Both the position numbers and the translations under genes were made by a program. Below are positions 10,021 through 38,978 of a stretch of DNA of 38,978 nt, one piece after another. The DNA lies in IMG/VR virus record IMGVR_UViG_2713896784_000029. One strand, written 5' to 3'. Origin of the DNA: a virus. Its lineage: Duplodnaviria; Heunggongvirae; Uroviricota; Caudoviricetes. The notes under the pieces were generated by a model. It searched no databases and had not been told where the DNA came from. It saw only the letters and a list, made by a program, of their open reading frames with translations. The stretch's first letter is position 1. Each line of letters opens with the position of its first letter.

Positions 10021-10446
10021 ATGACAGAAACTCAGATGAGCATGTTTGGTGGTGACAGTGAGCAACTGCACGCCCTTATCGACCGCCTTGATGACATCCC
10101 TGATGATGTTCTCAAAAAGAACTGGCCGCGGACCCTGTCTGAACTGGTTGAAGTCACCGGCGCAGAACTTCAGCGTCAGGGGATTGAGCCGGTACTGGCC
10201 GGTAAACTGGCACGCAAGGTGGCTGCGGCTCAGGCAGCCTATATGGGCGGACGGGGTTATTACCTGCCGGTCGGGGAATCTCTCTTTGCCGAGCTGCGAA
10301 ACAATGAGATATTTTCGCGCTGGGACCGGGGCGAGAAAATTGAATCCCTTCGCCGCCATTACCGGATGTCAGAAACCCAGATTTATACCGTCATACGTGA
10401 ACAGCGCCGTCTGCATCTGGCAAGAACGCAACCGCCACTTTTCTGA
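10021..10446 (+). CDS. Mor/C-family transcription activator
   Basis: 141 aa; C-terminal HTH region (SETQIYTVIREQRRLHL) and overall layout like Mu Mor/C; sits between gemA and lysis genes; RBS GGAGG. Confidence 0.7.
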   Translation: MTETQMSMFGGDSEQLHALIDRLDDIPDDVLKKNWPRTLSELVEVTGAELQRQGIEPVLAGKLARKVAAAQAAYMGGRGYYLPVGESLFAELRNNEIFSRWDRGEKIESLRRHYRMSETQIYTVIREQRRLHLARTQPPLF

Positions 10447-33787: not shown

Positions 33788-34348
33788 ATGCTGATTGGCT
33801 ATATACGCGTATCAACAAATGACCAGAACACAGGTTTACAAAGAAATGCGCTGGAATGTGCAGGATGTGAGCAGATTTTTGAAGATAAAATGAGTGGTAA
33901 AACGACACAGCGGCCGGGACTGAAGCGGGCACTGAAGAAACTAAAACCCGGTGACACACTGATGGTCTGGAAACTGGACAGGCTGGGGCGCAGTATGCGC
34001 CACCTTGTTGCGCTGACAGATGAATTACAGCAACAGGGGATAAATTTTCGTAGTCTTACTGACAACATTGATACGTCAACCCCCATGGGGCGCTTCTTTT
34101 TTCACATAATGGGTGCGCTGGCAGAAATGGAGCGTGAATTAATTGTCGAACGGACACGGGCTGGTCTTGCAGCTGCCCGTGAAAGGGGACGAACCGGCGG
34201 CAGACCCCGTCGTCTCACGCAGGAACAATACGAGCAGGTCGGGCGTTTACTGGCCGGGGGTGTCAGTCGAAGACAGGTGGCACTTATTTTTGATATCGGC
34301 CTTTCAACCCTTTATCGTTATTATCCTGCGAGCGTTTCGGAAAAATAA
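33788..34348 (+). CDS. gin: serine recombinase, Gin/Hin/Pin/Cin-family DNA invertase
   Basis: 186 aa; MLIGYIRVSTNDQNTGLQRNAL... with catalytic Ser in RVST and C-terminal HTH (QVALIFDIGLSTLYRY); very close to Mu Gin as recalled. Confidence 0.9.
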   Translation: MLIGYIRVSTNDQNTGLQRNALECAGCEQIFEDKMSGKTTQRPGLKRALKKLKPGDTLMVWKLDRLGRSMRHLVALTDELQQQGINFRSLTDNIDTSTPMGRFFFHIMGALAEMERELIVERTRAGLAAARERGRTGGRPRRLTQEQYEQVGRLLAGGVSRRQVALIFDIGLSTLYRYYPASVSEK

Positions 34349-34447
34349 GACGCTCTCTTTGTTGGGCCTTTACTGAATTAACGCAAAATGGCGTTTATCG
34401 GTCTGTGGATATGATAATTCAGTTTATTCAGGAACAGGCTGATTATT

Positions 34448-36487
34448 ATGACGTCCAAATGGGTTCAACTATCATCAATGCCCGGAAACTTTACTGTTAA
34501 AGTTTCCGGTGGTACAGCGGCATTTCTTGAGGCTCCCTTTCCTCCGGCCGAAACAAAAGGAGGAATGACATTTGCTGACTGTCTCATCAGTTTTAATACA
34601 CGGGATTGCCTGTGGGTAAGGCCAGTATCCGGTGATCCGAGTGTGGAAATTACCGGAGCGGGTATTGGTGCGGTCATTCCGTTAAGTGCTGATGTTGCCG
34701 GTACTGCTGAACCGTCAGACTGGGATAATGCTGAAACACATACCCGTCCGTCAGGAAATGAAACTGCTTCCAGCTCCCCTTCCTGGTATTACGTGGTGGT
34801 TCTTGCTGGTCAGTCAAACGGTATGGCTTACGGTGAAGGTCTGCCACTGCCGGAGACATATGACCGCCCCGAACCGCGTATTATGCAGTTAGCCCGTCGC
34901 AGTACAGTCACGCCGGGAGGTAAAGCCTGTCAGTATAACGACATCATTCTGGCCGACCACTGTCTGCATGATGTGCAGGATATGAGTGGAAAAAATCACC
35001 CGAAAGCGGATGTGGCTAAAGGGCAATATGGCACCGTGGGTCAGGGGCTTCACATTGCCAAAAAACTGCTGCCGTTTATTCCGGCAGATGCGGGGATTCT
35101 GCTGGTTCCCTGCTGCCGTGGTGGTTCTGCATTCACGGCGGGTGCTGACGGCACGTACAGTGACAGCACGGGTGCTTCAGAGGACTCAGCCCGCTGGGGT
35201 GTGGATAAGCCGCTGTATAAGGACTTAATCAGCCGGACAAAAGCGGCACTGGCGAAGAACCCGAAAAACCGCCTGCTTGCTGTGGTGTGGATGCAGGGCG
35301 AGTTTGATATTGATGCGAAGCCGACGGAGCATTCCGCGCTGTTTCTGGCGATGGTGGAAAAATTCCGCGCAGACCTGGCTGAACAGGCGGAACAGTGTAC
35401 CGGTGGCAGTGCTGCTGGCGTTCCGTGGATTTGTGGCGATACCACGTATTTCTGGAAACAGAAAAATGAACCGGCATACCAGGCAATCTATGGCGGCTAC
35501 AAAAACAAAACAGATAAAAACATTCATTTCGTTCCATTAATGACAGATGAAAATGACGCGAATGTACCCACCAACAATCCGGCAGAAGACCCGGATATTG
35601 AATCCATTGGTTATTACGGCTCAACGTGGCGTAACAGTGCCGCCACCTGGACATCTGCGGACCGGGCCAGCCATTTCAGTTCATGGGCACGTCGTGGGAT
35701 TATTTCCGACCGTCTGGCCACGGCAGTTCTGACTCATGCGGGGCGAACCACAGTAAAAGCCGATGTTCCATCTTCTGAAACTGAAGCACCAGTGCCGTCA
35801 CCTTCAGAAACTGAAGCAGTAACCACAACACTGCTGTCTTATCGTGTCAGTGAGTCAGAAGGAAATCTGAAAGCCCAGGGCTGGGAGCCGGCTGGCGGTA
35901 AAGCTGAAATTATCAGTGATGCAGGAGGCACAGGTGGTAAGGCAATGAAACTGACCAAGGAAACAGGTAAATCATCCTGGTATCTGGATCATGATGCCGG
36001 TACTGGTGCTGAACTGCTGAAAAATGGTGGTTTAATCAGTTGTCGTTTTAAAGTACCTGGCGACCTGGTGGCAAACCAGTATGTCATGGGGCTTTACTGG
36101 CCGGTTTCCTCTCTGCCGCAGGGTGTCACCCTGACAGGGGATGCAGGGAATAATCTGCTGGCATCGTTCTACATCCAGACAGACGCAAAAGACCTGAATG
36201 TGATGTACCACAATGCAAAAGTGGCAACAAATAACCAGAAACTGGGAACCTTTGGTGCATTTGATAATGAATGGCATACGCTGGCCTTCCGTTTTGCAGG
36301 AAATAACAGCCTTCAGGTTATTCCGGTTATTGATGGTCAGGATGGTGCCGCGTTTACCCTGACGCAGTCACCAGTAGGAACTTTCCCGGTGGACAAACTC
36401 CGCGTAACGGATATCACAAAAAATGCAACTTACCCGGTGCTGATTGACAGCATTGTGGTGGAAGTGAAAAAAGCGGTAACAGAATAA
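34448..36487 (+). CDS. cargo SASA/SGNH-type carbohydrate O-acetylesterase (prophage NanS-p-like) with C-terminal beta-rich domain
   Basis: 679 aa; VVVLAGQSNGMAYGEG (Ser motif) and VVWMQGEFD (WxQGE.D) match the sialate O-acetylesterase family signature; SETEA-SETEA linker then ~230-aa beta-rich domain; located between gin and com where Mu has no gene. Confidence 0.6.
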   Translation: MTSKWVQLSSMPGNFTVKVSGGTAAFLEAPFPPAETKGGMTFADCLISFNTRDCLWVRPVSGDPSVEITGAGIGAVIPLSADVAGTAEPSDWDNAETHTRPSGNETASSSPSWYYVVVLAGQSNGMAYGEGLPLPETYDRPEPRIMQLARRSTVTPGGKACQYNDIILADHCLHDVQDMSGKNHPKADVAKGQYGTVGQGLHIAKKLLPFIPADAGILLVPCCRGGSAFTAGADGTYSDSTGASEDSARWGVDKPLYKDLISRTKAALAKNPKNRLLAVVWMQGEFDIDAKPTEHSALFLAMVEKFRADLAEQAEQCTGGSAAGVPWICGDTTYFWKQKNEPAYQAIYGGYKNKTDKNIHFVPLMTDENDANVPTNNPAEDPDIESIGYYGSTWRNSAATWTSADRASHFSSWARRGIISDRLATAVLTHAGRTTVKADVPSSETEAPVPSPSETEAVTTTLLSYRVSESEGNLKAQGWEPAGGKAEIISDAGGTGGKAMKLTKETGKSSWYLDHDAGTGAELLKNGGLISCRFKVPGDLVANQYVMGLYWPVSSLPQGVTLTGDAGNNLLASFYIQTDAKDLNVMYHNAKVATNNQKLGTFGAFDNEWHTLAFRFAGNNSLQVIPVIDGQDGAAFTLTQSPVGTFPVDKLRVTDITKNATYPVLIDSIVVEVKKAVTE

Positions 36488-36493
36488 AAAAAT

Positions 36494-36520
36494 CCCGCCG
36501 GTCATGATATGGCTGGCGGG
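36494..36520. terminator. hairpin after esterase gene
   Basis: CCCGCC...GGCGGG stem with A-run upstream (T-run on the minus strand), 7 bp after the esterase stop. Confidence 0.35.
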
Positions 36521-36633
36521 AGCTACCTAACCCATAAAGGAAAATAAAAATACTCCCGAAGGAGTGGTTATCAGTCGCTTCGATGTTTTTACCCGATAAC
36601 GAATTATGTAGTCAATATCAAAGGTAAGGTTAT

Positions 36634-36816
36634 ATGACATTCGTTCATACAATGCTGCTTTATTTCTGCGCTGTGGTCAGTGCGTTATATCTGGTGAGCG
36701 GTGGTTATAAGGTCATCAGAAATTATATTCGCCGTAAAATTGATGATGCGGCAGCTGAAAAACTCAGTAAAACAGCACAGGCACCGTCATCCCCAAACGA
36801 CCCGACCCCGCTCTGA
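36634..36816 (+). CDS. small membrane protein (single N-terminal TM)
   Basis: 60 aa; TM LLYFCAVVSALYLVSGGY followed by charged tail; AAGGT RBS. Confidence 0.35.
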   Translation: MTFVHTMLLYFCAVVSALYLVSGGYKVIRNYIRRKIDDAAAEKLSKTAQAPSSPNDPTPL

Positions 36817-36851
36817 TAACGGGGCAATATACCTGCAAAAGGAGAATATTC

Positions 36852-37097
36852 ATGCCAGAGATTAAAGGCACGGTTACTGAAGAGCTTGTCAAACAGGCAC
36901 TTTATTCTGAAGAAGTGAACCGCGTGCTGAAGGCGCAGGTTCGCAAGGATTTTGAGGCACAAATCGACGCATATGTTGATGAAGTGCTGGCCCGAATGGT
37001 TGGCCGTTCTCCGGCTGAAAACAGCACGGAAAATGATCCTCAACCCGTAGAGCAACCAGAGCCGGTTCAGCCCGGAACTGACGGTACTATGATGTAA
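36852..37097 (+). CDS. small acidic hypothetical protein
   Basis: 81 aa with strong RBS AAAAGGAGAA; followed by a terminator hairpin. Confidence 0.4.
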   Translation: MPEIKGTVTEELVKQALYSEEVNRVLKAQVRKDFEAQIDAYVDEVLARMVGRSPAENSTENDPQPVEQPEPVQPGTDGTMM

Positions 37098-37106
37098 CAA
37101 TACCGA

Positions 37107-37140
37107 CCGGCAGGTTTCCCTGCCGGGTGAGTTTGTTAAT
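37107..37140 (+). terminator. intrinsic terminator after small cargo ORF
   Basis: CCGGCAGG-TTTC-CCTGCCGG perfect 8-bp stem followed by GTGAGTTTGTT. Confidence 0.5.
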
Positions 37141-37415
37141 GCACGTTTTGTGTATTTTCCCTCCTGGGAGAACAGGCAGGACATATCAGCATCCTGAAAC
37201 AGGAAGCATTTTTGGGTTTGTATGTCTTGCCATTTTGAGATCGAGAACGGCGATAGATGAGCTGTAAGGGAGTCTTACAGGCAGGGCAAACAGGCTCTTT
37301 CATCCATGATAAAGATCTCCTTTTTATGCATCTCTGCTTTACAGGAGACCGGGGAATATCATAGGATACGCCACGAGCTCGAAGTAAAGCATTGATGCAA
37401 GTTTTTACAGATTGA

Positions 37416-37454
37416 CCCAGCATAGTTCCAGCTATGCTGGGTTTCACTTTTATG
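37416..37454 (+). terminator. strong intrinsic terminator inside the 0.57-kb noncoding stretch
   Basis: CCCAGCATAG-TTCCAG-CTATGCTGGG 10-bp stem followed by TTTCACTTTTAT; no annotated plus-strand ORF ends nearby. Confidence 0.55.
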
Positions 37455-37640
37455 TAGTATCCTGTTGATTTGAAACATACTACATATACGCGTGATCCTA
37501 CCTTCACTGTATAAAAAGTCAATAAAATGATCATTTTATGATCGTTTTCACCACCTAACTCTTCGTTTTCTTTAAGTAAATAATCACCTCCCTGAATCAT
37601 TGTTGATGACTTTTCAATCTATTTGTTGTATCAATTAAAC

Positions 37641-37670
37641 AAATCGAATCGATCGTTTTTGTCGATCGAT
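37641..37670. promoter_or_regulatory. mom-operon regulatory palindrome with two GATC (Dam) sites
   Basis: AATCGATCG-TTTTTGT-CGATCGATT inverted repeat about 45-75 bp upstream of com; GATC at 37651-37654 and 37664-37667. Confidence 0.5.
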
Positions 37671-37714
37671 TGCATGAGAAAGGCATCAACAACAAAGCAG
37701 GAGGTTATGCGGTC

Positions 37715-37915
37715 ATGTATCGAAACATACGGTGCCGACACTGCAATAAGCTACTGGCACGGGCCAGTTTCAGTTATCTGGAAGTAAAATGTCCGCGCTG
37801 TAAAACCCTCAATCAAATCACATCTCCGAGCGCCACAGAGCACCCCACATACACAAGGAAATCCTGTCGTGGGGAACAGAAAGCAAGTCACATCCCGAAT
37901 CATCAGCACGCCTGA
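37715..37915 (+). CDS. com: Com zinc-finger translational activator of mom
   Basis: [30 protein letters not shown] parallels Mu Com (IRCKNCNKLL...IRCPRCK); ORF overlaps the mom start as in Mu. Confidence 0.8.
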
Positions 37916-38606
37916 ACTTATTCGCTATAACGACAATATCGTTGGTTATGGCTCCCGTGAGTTGCGGGTTGAGACAATAAGTTGCTGGCTGGCCAGACTG
38001 GTCATCGTCAATAAACATTACAGCCACCGTTTCGTAAATAACTCCTACCTTCATCTGGGCATATTTTCAGAACGGGAACTTGTTGGCGTAATGCAATGGG
38101 GTTACGCCCTTAACCCAAACAGTGGTGCACGCGTCGTAACGGGTACGCAGAACCGAGAATATATGGAGCTTAACCGGCTATGGCTGCATGACTGTATGCC
38201 GAGAAACTCCGAATCAAGGGCAATCAGTTACGCGCTCAAGCTAATCAGGCAGCTTTATCCGCAGGTACAGTGGGTTCAGTCGTTTGCAGATGAGCGTTGT
38301 GGCTGTCTTGGTGTCGTGTATCAGGCAAGCAATTTTGATTATGTAGGCAGCCATGAATCAATATTCTATGAACTTGATGGCGAGTGGTATCACGAGATTT
38401 GCAGGAATGCCATTAAACGAGGCGGACAACGAGGTGAACATCTGAGGGCTAATATTGACAGAGCCAGTGTTCATAAGTTCCGACAGTTTCGTTACATCCG
38501 GTTTCTGAACAAGAGGGCCAGAAAACGCCTCAACACAAAGCTATTCAAAGTCCAGCCTTACCCAAAACCACAAACAGTTAAAACTGGTTTGAAAGAGAGT
38601 GAATGA
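37869..38606 (+). CDS. mom: Mom DNA-modification protein
   Basis: 245-aa ORF immediately downstream of and overlapping com, last gene before the right end, as in Mu; exact start uncertain. Confidence 0.7.
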
Positions 38607-38640
38607 GCGCTTAAAAACTCATTCTAAAACTCAAAAGAAA

Positions 38641-38732
38641 AGCGCCGATTTAGTATCAAATAAGTTGCGTATCGGCGTTTTTCAGCGGTATCAAATGAAA
38701 TGCAAATCGGTATCAAAAAAATCGCCGCGCTA
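38641..38732. repeat. putative prophage right end (attR-like) repeats
   Basis: Three copies of (A/G)GTATCAAA at 38652, 38687, 38710; CGGCGTTTTTC resembles the CGTTTTTCG core of Mu end sites; flanking inverted GCGCCGATTT / AAATCGCCGCGC. Confidence 0.35.
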
Positions 38733-38777
38733 TACTTGCTGCAAGGTTATCCCGCCGTTGAAGCTGCATTAGGTTTT

Positions 38778-38978
38778 ATGCTTCCGGCACTCTTTATGAG
38801 TTTCCTGCTCGCCTCTTTTCAGCGCAAACAATCTCTTTGCGTTACCGCAGCGTTAGTTGGTGCCCTTGCAGGCGTAACGCTATTTTCTATTCCCGTCGCC
38901 ATTCTGGCAGGCATTGTCTGTGGCTGCCTCACTGCGTTAATCCAGGCATTCTGGCAAGGAGCGCCCGATGAGCTATGA
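38778..38978 (+). CDS. small integral membrane protein ORF at window edge (possibly host flank or truncated host gene)
   Basis: Two hydrophobic helices (LPALFMSFLLASF, ALVGALAGVTLFSIPVAILAGIVCGCLTALI); frame is open upstream to 38664; the next ORF starts at an overlapping ATG at the last bases of the window. Confidence 0.3.
   Translation: MLPALFMSFLLASFQRKQSLCVTAALVGALAGVTLFSIPVAILAGIVCGCLTALIQAFWQGAPDEL

Follow-up and report, generated by a model that had tools for sequence, protein, structure and literature searches.

A GATC-bearing palindrome upstream of com-mom in an Sp18-type Mu-like prophage is a probable Dam/OxyR operator element and a likely counterpart of part of the phage Mu operator

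The window, by which we mean the whole 38,978-nt stretch of viral DNA analysed here, represents an entire Mu-like prophage of Sp18 type. The initial annotation had described overlapping Com and Mom homologues arranged as in Mu, and this description holds: both products match their Pfam families and the two genes overlap by 47 nt in different frames, as they do in Mu. The parts of the operon are the following.

37699-37704, plus strand: Shine-Dalgarno sequence AGGAGG of com (direct reading)
37715-37915, plus strand: com, encoding a 66-aa zinc-ribbon translational activator (Pfam Zn_ribbon_Com, E = 1.9e-12)
37843-37874, plus strand: translation-inhibition hairpin, CCCCAC at 37843-48 pairing with GUGGGG at 37869-74 (predicted RNA fold)
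37869-38606, plus strand: mom, encoding a DNA adenine modification enzyme, GTG start (Pfam Mom, E = 4e-77)

The com product is 45% identical to Mu Com and keeps four of four cysteines, and its ORF is annotated identically in RefSeq, where the product of mom (71% DNA identity to Mu mom) carries the name 'tRNA(Gly)-dependent adenine aminoacyltransferase Mom'. The AGGAGG of com is kept in all Sp18-type variants. The predicted hairpin encloses the mom Shine-Dalgarno sequence AAGGA (37855-59) and sequesters the GUG start codon, and an equivalent GUG-start hairpin is predicted in Mu, in the com-methyltransferase cassette of P2-like prophages and in the C5-methyltransferase variant. A search of Rfam over 36500-38978 at a permissive threshold returned chance-level matches only. 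Hypermodification of the Mom type is toxic for host cells, and it is kept under several locks in Mu.

The left end of the prophage carries the repressor, ner and the A and B transposition genes. A Mu-like phage integrated into an Stx2c phage served as reference for the right end, which was put near 38734; the insertion site of the prophage in the window differs from that of Sakai. Two features set the window apart from Mu: a cargo insert of about 3.3 kb (34349-37630) between the gin-like invertase and com, and a sole Mor/C-family activator in place of two, Mu having separate Mor and C genes with the middle operon between them.

10021-10446, plus strand: Mor/C-family late activator (Pfam Mor, E = 3.1e-32)
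33788-34345: gin-like invertase (profile match)
34448-36487: cargo, esterase with SASA and DUF6645 domains
36852-37097: cargo, DUF826, accompanied in the cargo by DUF1378
37136-37600, minus strand: cargo, 154-aa ORF, annotated as frameshifted in one genome

The activator gene lies between gemA and the lysozyme gene, directly upstream of the latter, and its product is 39% identical to Mu C and 28% identical to Mu Mor. Within the cargo, a strong terminator-like hairpin on the plus strand (37414-37443; 13 pairs, GACCCAGCATAG...CTATGCTGGGTT, with a T-rich tail) falls inside the 154-aa minus-strand ORF, which suggests that this ORF is not a single intact gene. The sequence ATCAATTAA at 37630-38 corresponds to the last 9 nt of Mu gin, and the gin of the window ends at 34348, in another sequence.

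A palindrome with two GATC sites had been pointed out just upstream of com-mom, and it is present at 37647-37671, with the proposed half-sites around and within it.

37621-37635, unstranded: candidate distal OxyR half-site ATTTGTTGTATCAAT, without a GATC (7 of 10 positions of ATAGnTnnnAnCTAT)
37647-37671, unstranded: palindrome AATCGATCG-N7-CGATCGATT (direct reading, Mu alignment, agn43/gtr form, invariance)
37652-37666, unstranded: proposed proximal OxyR half-site ATCGTTTTTGTCGAT, the palindrome core (sequence comparison)

An inverted-repeat search gave arms of 9 nt, 100% complementary, around a 7-nt loop (tttttgt). The two GATCs are at 37651-54 and 37664-67, and GATC-N9-GATC occurs a single time across the 38,978-nt window, with 0.45 occurrences expected by chance per window. 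A 9-nt perfect inverted repeat containing GATC is found somewhere in 8% of dinucleotide-shuffled windows, a frequency which would suit the view that overlapping PvuI and ClaI sites have produced a functionless palindrome; chance levels are a weak argument by themselves, and taken alone the dyad at 37647-37671 is statistically unstriking. What makes it non-random is its position, the last GATC being 47 nt before the com ATG, together with its conservation. Position and sequence are kept in at least four diverged lineages, and the 25-nt dyad shows 0 substitutions in six distinct Sp18-type upstream variants, the flanks of which differ. Because of this conservation an origin by chance is excluded, or at best barely credible. 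Three further GATCs at about 37494-37545 initially resembled the three sites of Mu and were rejected: they lie in a cargo-derived segment and are missing from L005-type relatives, which have a different upstream segment, and since they are not conserved there they were not counted as part of the element.

The three GATC sites of Mu mom are said, in work credited to Bolker and Kahmann in 1989 and to Hattman and Sun in 1997, to be bound by OxyR when unmethylated. Transcription from Mu Pmom is under the control of Dam and OxyR (PMC3378877; PMC2909390). In Mu, the sequence upstream of com is acGATCgaatcaattaaATCGATCggtaatacaGATCGATTATgccccaATAAcc, and the palindrome of the window aligns there with the dyad AATCGATC-N9-GATCGATT that is formed by Mu GATC sites 2 and 3. 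Both dyads have 8-nt arms and a 9-nt spacer, reading AATCGATC-ggtaataca-GATCGATT in Mu and AATCGATC-gtttttgtc-GATCGATT in the window. Mu and the window further share the flanking ATCAATTAAA before the dyad, a distal half-site 31 bp upstream of the proximal one, the same operon parts (Shine-Dalgarno sequence, com, the hairpin holding the GUG start, mom) and hosts, E. coli and its relatives, with Dam and OxyR, E. coli having both dam and oxyR.

The two regions differ in several respects. Mu has three GATCs at 0/18/31, whereas the window has only the 13-bp pair; where Mu has GATC site 1, closing the distal half-site on its 3' side, the window has TTGT, and a 7-nt insertion separates the half-site elements of the window when it is compared with Mu. 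In Mu the interval from operator to com holds TTAT-N6-ATAA, the site of the C protein, as well as a weak, activator-dependent promoter whose spacer is 19 bp long. The window is without such a C site, a search for TTAT-N6-ATAA with at most 1 mismatch over 37560-37715 giving no match, and its last GATC is 47 nt from the com ATG instead of 74 nt as in Mu, i.e. 27 nt less. With the Mu +1 placed at L001 position 947 (from the -58 to +20 promoter oligonucleotide), the Mu operator extends from about -99 to -54 and lies upstream of the C site. The comparison with the Mu mom region that the initial annotation had proposed thus stands for the dyad and its flank and fails for the three GATCs and the C site, and its suggestion of a Mu-type methylation-sensitive switch gains support from the alignment with Mu GATC sites 2 and 3. 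The palindrome appears to be the counterpart of part of the Mu OxyR/Dam operator, more than an analogue of it, while the architecture in the window differs from that of Mu in being compacted.

An OxyR binding site comprises two ATAGnTnnnAnCTAT half-sites at a spacing of 22 bp (oxidised form) or about 32 bp (reduced form). The proximal half-site ATCGTTTTTGTCGAT at 37652-66 agrees with ATAGnTnnnAnCTAT at 7 of its 10 specified positions, and the core gATCG-N7-CGATc is supported, by comparison with other half-sites, as having the form of one OxyR dimer half-site. Combined with the distal candidate at 37621-35, which is 31 bp upstream, it scores 14/20, a value that no other position in the window attains at a spacing of 31 bp; 14/20 at that spacing is reached by 3% of local shuffles, and the AT-rich region inflates such scores. 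Against the 37-mer consensus (22-bp spacing), five positions of the window score 13/20 or higher, and four of these are at 37599-37630. With 7/10 per half-site, the site would be a moderate fit to the textbook OxyR consensus. Validated OxyR sites reach 14/20 (Mu), 16/20 (agn43) and 18/20 (gtr BC) under the same scoring.

Ten com operators were scored with the two-half-site arrangement at 31 bp, and in these it is the best or joint-best arrangement (Sp18-type 14/20, Citrobacter 16/20 and P2-like 15/20; further, Mu, D108 and SfMu 14/20 and Yersinia YpM_3 13/20), and a second half-site candidate at 31 bp is found in all enterobacterial com operators examined. The half-site spacing is 31 bp in Mu, the P2-like operators and Citrobacter, and 32 bp in agn43 and gtr. 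Since the distal half-site of the window is without a GATC and has no counterpart of Mu GATC site 1, only one half-site would confer sensitivity to methylation.

Two other systems help in reading this arrangement. At agn43 (flu), Dam competes with OxyR (PMC2909390). The operator of E. coli K-12 agn43 is ATAGAATAAAACGATc-N17-gATCGTTTATATCGATc, and its proximal half-site gATCGTTTATATCGATc is identical to ATCGTTTTTGTCGAT of the window at 13 of 15 positions. It has a single OxyR site serving as a repressor site in competition with Dam, a situation to which the window can be likened from its sequence; phase variation has been demonstrated for agn43. Unlike the window, agn43 carries its GATCs as a set of three (0/19/32), with 17 nt separating the half-sites, and its operator is at and downstream of the transcription start, for which the annotated 5' end of IsrC RNA was used.

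In P22 gtr, Broadbent et al. 2010 described GATC pairs 13 bp apart, each inside one OxyR half-site, at -110/-97 and -46/-33 (PMC2909390). Methylation abolishes OxyR binding there in EMSA, and it has a direct effect on promoter activity too (PMC2909390). The half-sites read from the sequence are ATCGGTAACAACGAT, ATAGATAAAAACTAT and ATCGCTTGTATCGAT, and half-sites A and C, ATCGGTAACAACGAT and ATCGCTTGTATCGAT, have a form in common with ATCGTTTTTGTCGAT of the window. The promoter-proximal half-site of gtr overlaps the -35 (GATC4 at -33), which is near the geometry that we infer for the window. With half-sites A, B and C and two GATC pairs, gtr offers OxyR a choice of two sites, an activating one and a repressing one, and it switches because of this combination of two GATC pairs and two alternative sites; in contrast, the window has one pair and one plausible site.

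The 21-mer of the window dyad, AATCGATCGTTTTTGTCGATC, also occurs upstream of a gene for an HTH regulator and a gene for a 'phase-variable autotransporter adhesin UpaE', and in this element the 21-mer is preceded, at a distance of 62 bp, by another GATC pair (GATCGTTGTTATCGATCGATT).

1146-1224 of L043 (NZ_CM129882): upaE-type element
about 1143-1221 of L045 (NZ_CP028735): upaE-type element

The layout of the upaE locus is gtr-like, with two GATC pairs, and suggests Dam/OxyR control. When the upaE-type element was compared with phages by BLAST, gtr was not retrieved; the P22 gtr sequence was read directly. Elements with three GATCs, spaced 13 + 18 bp and in either orientation, are common in viral contigs without com.

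1204-1252 of L044 (E. coli C5): three-GATC element
IMG/VR contigs L069, L076, L082, L085, L086, L095, L116, L118, L121, L147, L148, L153, L159, L162 and L164: three-GATC elements

Judging from translations, some of them are apparently beside glycosyltransferase-like or acetyltransferase-like ORFs or a peptidase-S24-type repressor. These elements without com seem to be additional candidates for Dam/OxyR operators.

Ten operators, those of agn43 and gtr BC among them, could be aligned with a single 1-nt gap; the mean column identity was 68%, and both dyad GATCs were invariant. Citrobacter braakii likewise has the operator before com, as do P2-like prophages from E. coli and Salmonella, including phage Chuche, and between the last GATC and the com ATG there are 47 nt in the Sp18 type, 48 nt in Citrobacter, 47 nt in the P2-like form and 74 nt in the Mu group. 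In IMG/VR, com is directly downstream in 17 of the 120 contigs carrying CGATCG-N7-CGATCGAT, com being scored by its first cysteine codon 62-63 nt downstream of that motif. Among complete E. coli genomes the element was found in 362 to 391 of 5,426, including Sp18 of O157:H7 Sakai, and the carriers of the com-mom region are mostly STEC; the STEC and ST131 methylome papers make no mention of the dyad site.

The com-methyltransferase cassettes of the P2-like prophages and Citrobacter have the operator, the Com family and the GUG-start hairpin in common with the window and differ from it in payload: where the window has Mom, they have a DNA methyltransferase of the N6/N4 or the C5 kind. Payloads behind such a unit, in these cassettes and in L002, are the following.

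3560-4825 of L002 (LC727881): C5-cytosine methyltransferase payload (Pfam DNA_methylase; GGTPCQAFS motif)
1400-3170 of L009 (Citrobacter braakii): C5-cytosine methyltransferase payload (GGTPCQAFS motif)
2390-3421 of L007 and 1100-2134 of L036 (P2-like prophages and phage Chuche): N6/N4 methyltransferase payload

In the P2-like form all three GATCs are retained, a clear extended -10 (TGTTATCAT) is found 7 nt past the last GATC, and the asymmetric dyad spacer is oriented opposite to that of the window. Identity between L002 and the window stops after GTGGGGAACA, at the fourth codon, just 3' of the hairpin. A natural operator-deletion variant was seen at about 1380-1500 of L011, a contig labelled 'Vagococcus sp.' WN89Y, where a P2-like com cassette has lost the segment from GATC 1 to GATC 3, apparently via recombination between GATCGAT repeats, and a single GATC is left; the organism label is doubtful, the contig being enterobacterial-looking.

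No GATC pair was found upstream of com in the two Pseudomonas phages examined, and Pseudomonas is not known to have Dam. None was found either at com in Haemophilus or the other bacterial genomes examined. The Haemophilus host has Dam, and its com loci without a GATC pair show that the operator is not universal to com modules.

Where the operator is present, the dyad is kept across phages with different late activators, namely Mu C, the C-like protein of the window and P2 Ogr, and it recurs at agn43 and upaE. Because it is kept despite these differing activators and also occurs on the chromosome, a host protein is the likelier reader. That this reader should be SeqA, acting on the hemimethylated pair, or that methylation should act directly on RNA polymerase, in either case without OxyR, seems to us quite unlikely. 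With a spacing of 13 bp the GATCs are roughly one turn of the helix from each other, and they overlap the putative promoter; the direct effect of methylation at the gtr promoter provides a precedent (PMC2909390). Yet the conserved bases exceed GATC and comprise ATCG-N7-CGAT and the distal half-site at a fixed spacing. Both mechanisms are disfavoured because neither would require conservation as wide as a half-site.

The position of the operator relative to the promoter bears on how OxyR would act. Only 31 nt separate the last GATC from the com Shine-Dalgarno sequence, and because of this short distance the operator must overlap the core promoter, for which we propose one candidate.

37659-37689, plus strand: inferred candidate core promoter, -35-like TTGTCG (37659-64), 19-nt spacer, -10-like CATCAA (37684-89)

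We have low confidence that this is the com-mom promoter. The candidate -10 CATCAA is poor, and a sigma-70 consensus scan of the plus strand over 37500-37715 found no promoter. In allelic variants the candidate -10 hexamer is TATCAA or TATCAT, and TATCAT is the -10 candidate of the P2-like cassette too. If this guess is right, the operator would lie at about -75 to -27, like the repressing BC site of gtr. The Sp18-type sequences show a GC/AT dimorphism at 37683-37684, with CATCAA in the O157/Sakai type and TATCAA or TATCAT elsewhere, and the O157 allele may have a weaker com-mom promoter. Directly after the dyad, the tetranucleotide at 37672-37675 is hypervariable.

The C-like protein encoded at 10021-10446 is presumed to trans-activate com-mom. 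Two motifs, the Mu CATAACCCC box and the CCTTACCCCC motif taken from upstream of the I-like gene, are unenriched in the window and absent upstream of com, and the lys upstream region, which is homologous to Mu Plys, yielded no motif usable at com. The most serious rival to OxyR as the reader is this activator, because the dyad occupies the position expected of a C site, so that the palindrome would be bound by a dimeric Mor/C-family protein instead. With a 5' UTR of about 20 nt as in Mu, the dyad would lie at about -50 to -25, and the Mu C binding region is about -28 to -57. Mor/C proteins have dyad-symmetric binding sites, which the palindrome would suit, and with TTAT-N6-ATAA missing and an interval to com that is 27 nt shorter there is no other obvious place for an activator. 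However, the corresponding dyad of Mu is not the C site, C binding instead to the adjacent TTATgccccaATAA. Moreover, the dyad precedes com in P2-like prophages with Ogr and no Mor/C gene in the stretch examined, it is also found at agn43 and upstream of upaE, and neither CGATCG nor ATCGAT occurs in the late promoter regions of lys and of the I-like gene in the prophage itself. On balance, we regard binding of the C-like activator to the dyad as unlikely and prefer OxyR as its reader.

The operator is itself bracketed by a longer repeat.

37585-37706, plus strand: long imperfect inverted repeat, arms 37585-37613 and 37679-37706 (inverted-repeat search)

Within this repeat, ACCUCC at 37586-91 is complementary to the com Shine-Dalgarno sequence, and RNA 37585-37720 is predicted to fold with -42.5 kcal/mol (z = -5.0; 0 of 200 shuffles as stable). 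Such a fold-back with an anti-Shine-Dalgarno sequence could silence com on read-through transcripts. As part of the mechanism it was set aside, being statistically strong in the window and unconserved: ACCUCC is altered in two of the six variants and absent from the L005 type, and Citrobacter has instead a local CCUCC-N12-GGAGG hairpin. The same data bear on the possibility that the palindrome works as an RNA or DNA hairpin, i.e. as a terminator, an attenuator or a fold-back hiding the com Shine-Dalgarno sequence in read-through. A terminator scan flags the palindrome on the minus strand, its RNA hairpin has -11.4 kcal/mol, and the 136-nt region as a whole has the stability and the anti-Shine-Dalgarno pairing just described. 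Against this, the palindrome hairpin is no better than shuffles (z = -1.2, 28 of 200 equally stable), it is not followed by a U-run on the plus strand, and no gene on the minus strand ends there. Besides the variation in the anti-Shine-Dalgarno sequence, the arms themselves differ in the Mu and P2-like operators (C/A at the start of the right arm), so that base-pairing is not the conserved property. A hairpin function for the palindrome is thus very improbable.

Altogether, we favour the reading, with a probability of roughly 0.7, that an OxyR tetramer site extends over 37621-37666 as two dimer half-sites 31 bp apart, the palindrome being the half nearer to the promoter. Its proximal half-site would present a Dam target at each end (gATCG-N7-CGATc). 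With both GATCs methylated by the host Dam, OxyR would be kept off and the com-mom promoter, for which only the 31 nt from the operator to the com Shine-Dalgarno sequence are available, would be accessible, presumably with a need for the C-like activator. When the GATCs are unmethylated, and possibly when they are hemimethylated after replication, OxyR would bind and cover the -35 and the upstream part of the promoter, and transcription of the toxic modification operon would be off. Bound OxyR would also shield the GATCs from Dam, in which case the OFF state could be inherited. Downstream, the remaining locks of Mu appear to be intact: Com would be made first and would then open the hairpin that buries the mom GUG start. 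The operator seems in this respect to be a further copy, an orthologue, of the known Dam/OxyR switch and involves no new mechanism.

More tentatively, operator, com and start-codon hairpin may form a portable multi-lock cassette that moves between Mu-like and P2-like phages with interchangeable payloads (Mom, C5-cytosine or N6/N4 methyltransferase), in which the compact OxyR/Dam site overlaps the promoter as in gtr and for which lysogens could show heritable ON and OFF states; this broader proposal is possible, and we hold it with considerable doubt.

If lysogens do show such heritable states, the prophage would bear an epigenetic switch whose output is itself an epigenetic mark. The sequence comparisons indicate that Sp18-like prophages, a group frequent in Shiga-toxin-producing E. 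coli, have conserved the Dam-versus-OxyR lock, and that the unit of operator, com and hairpin is reused before other DNA methyltransferases in P2-like prophages. The signature gATCG-N7-CGATc with a second half-site 31-32 bp away would, in turn, predict Dam/OxyR-controlled genes in enterobacterial mobile elements. Finally, such a switch suggests that the DNA modification of prophage and host could be heterogeneous within a lysogen population.
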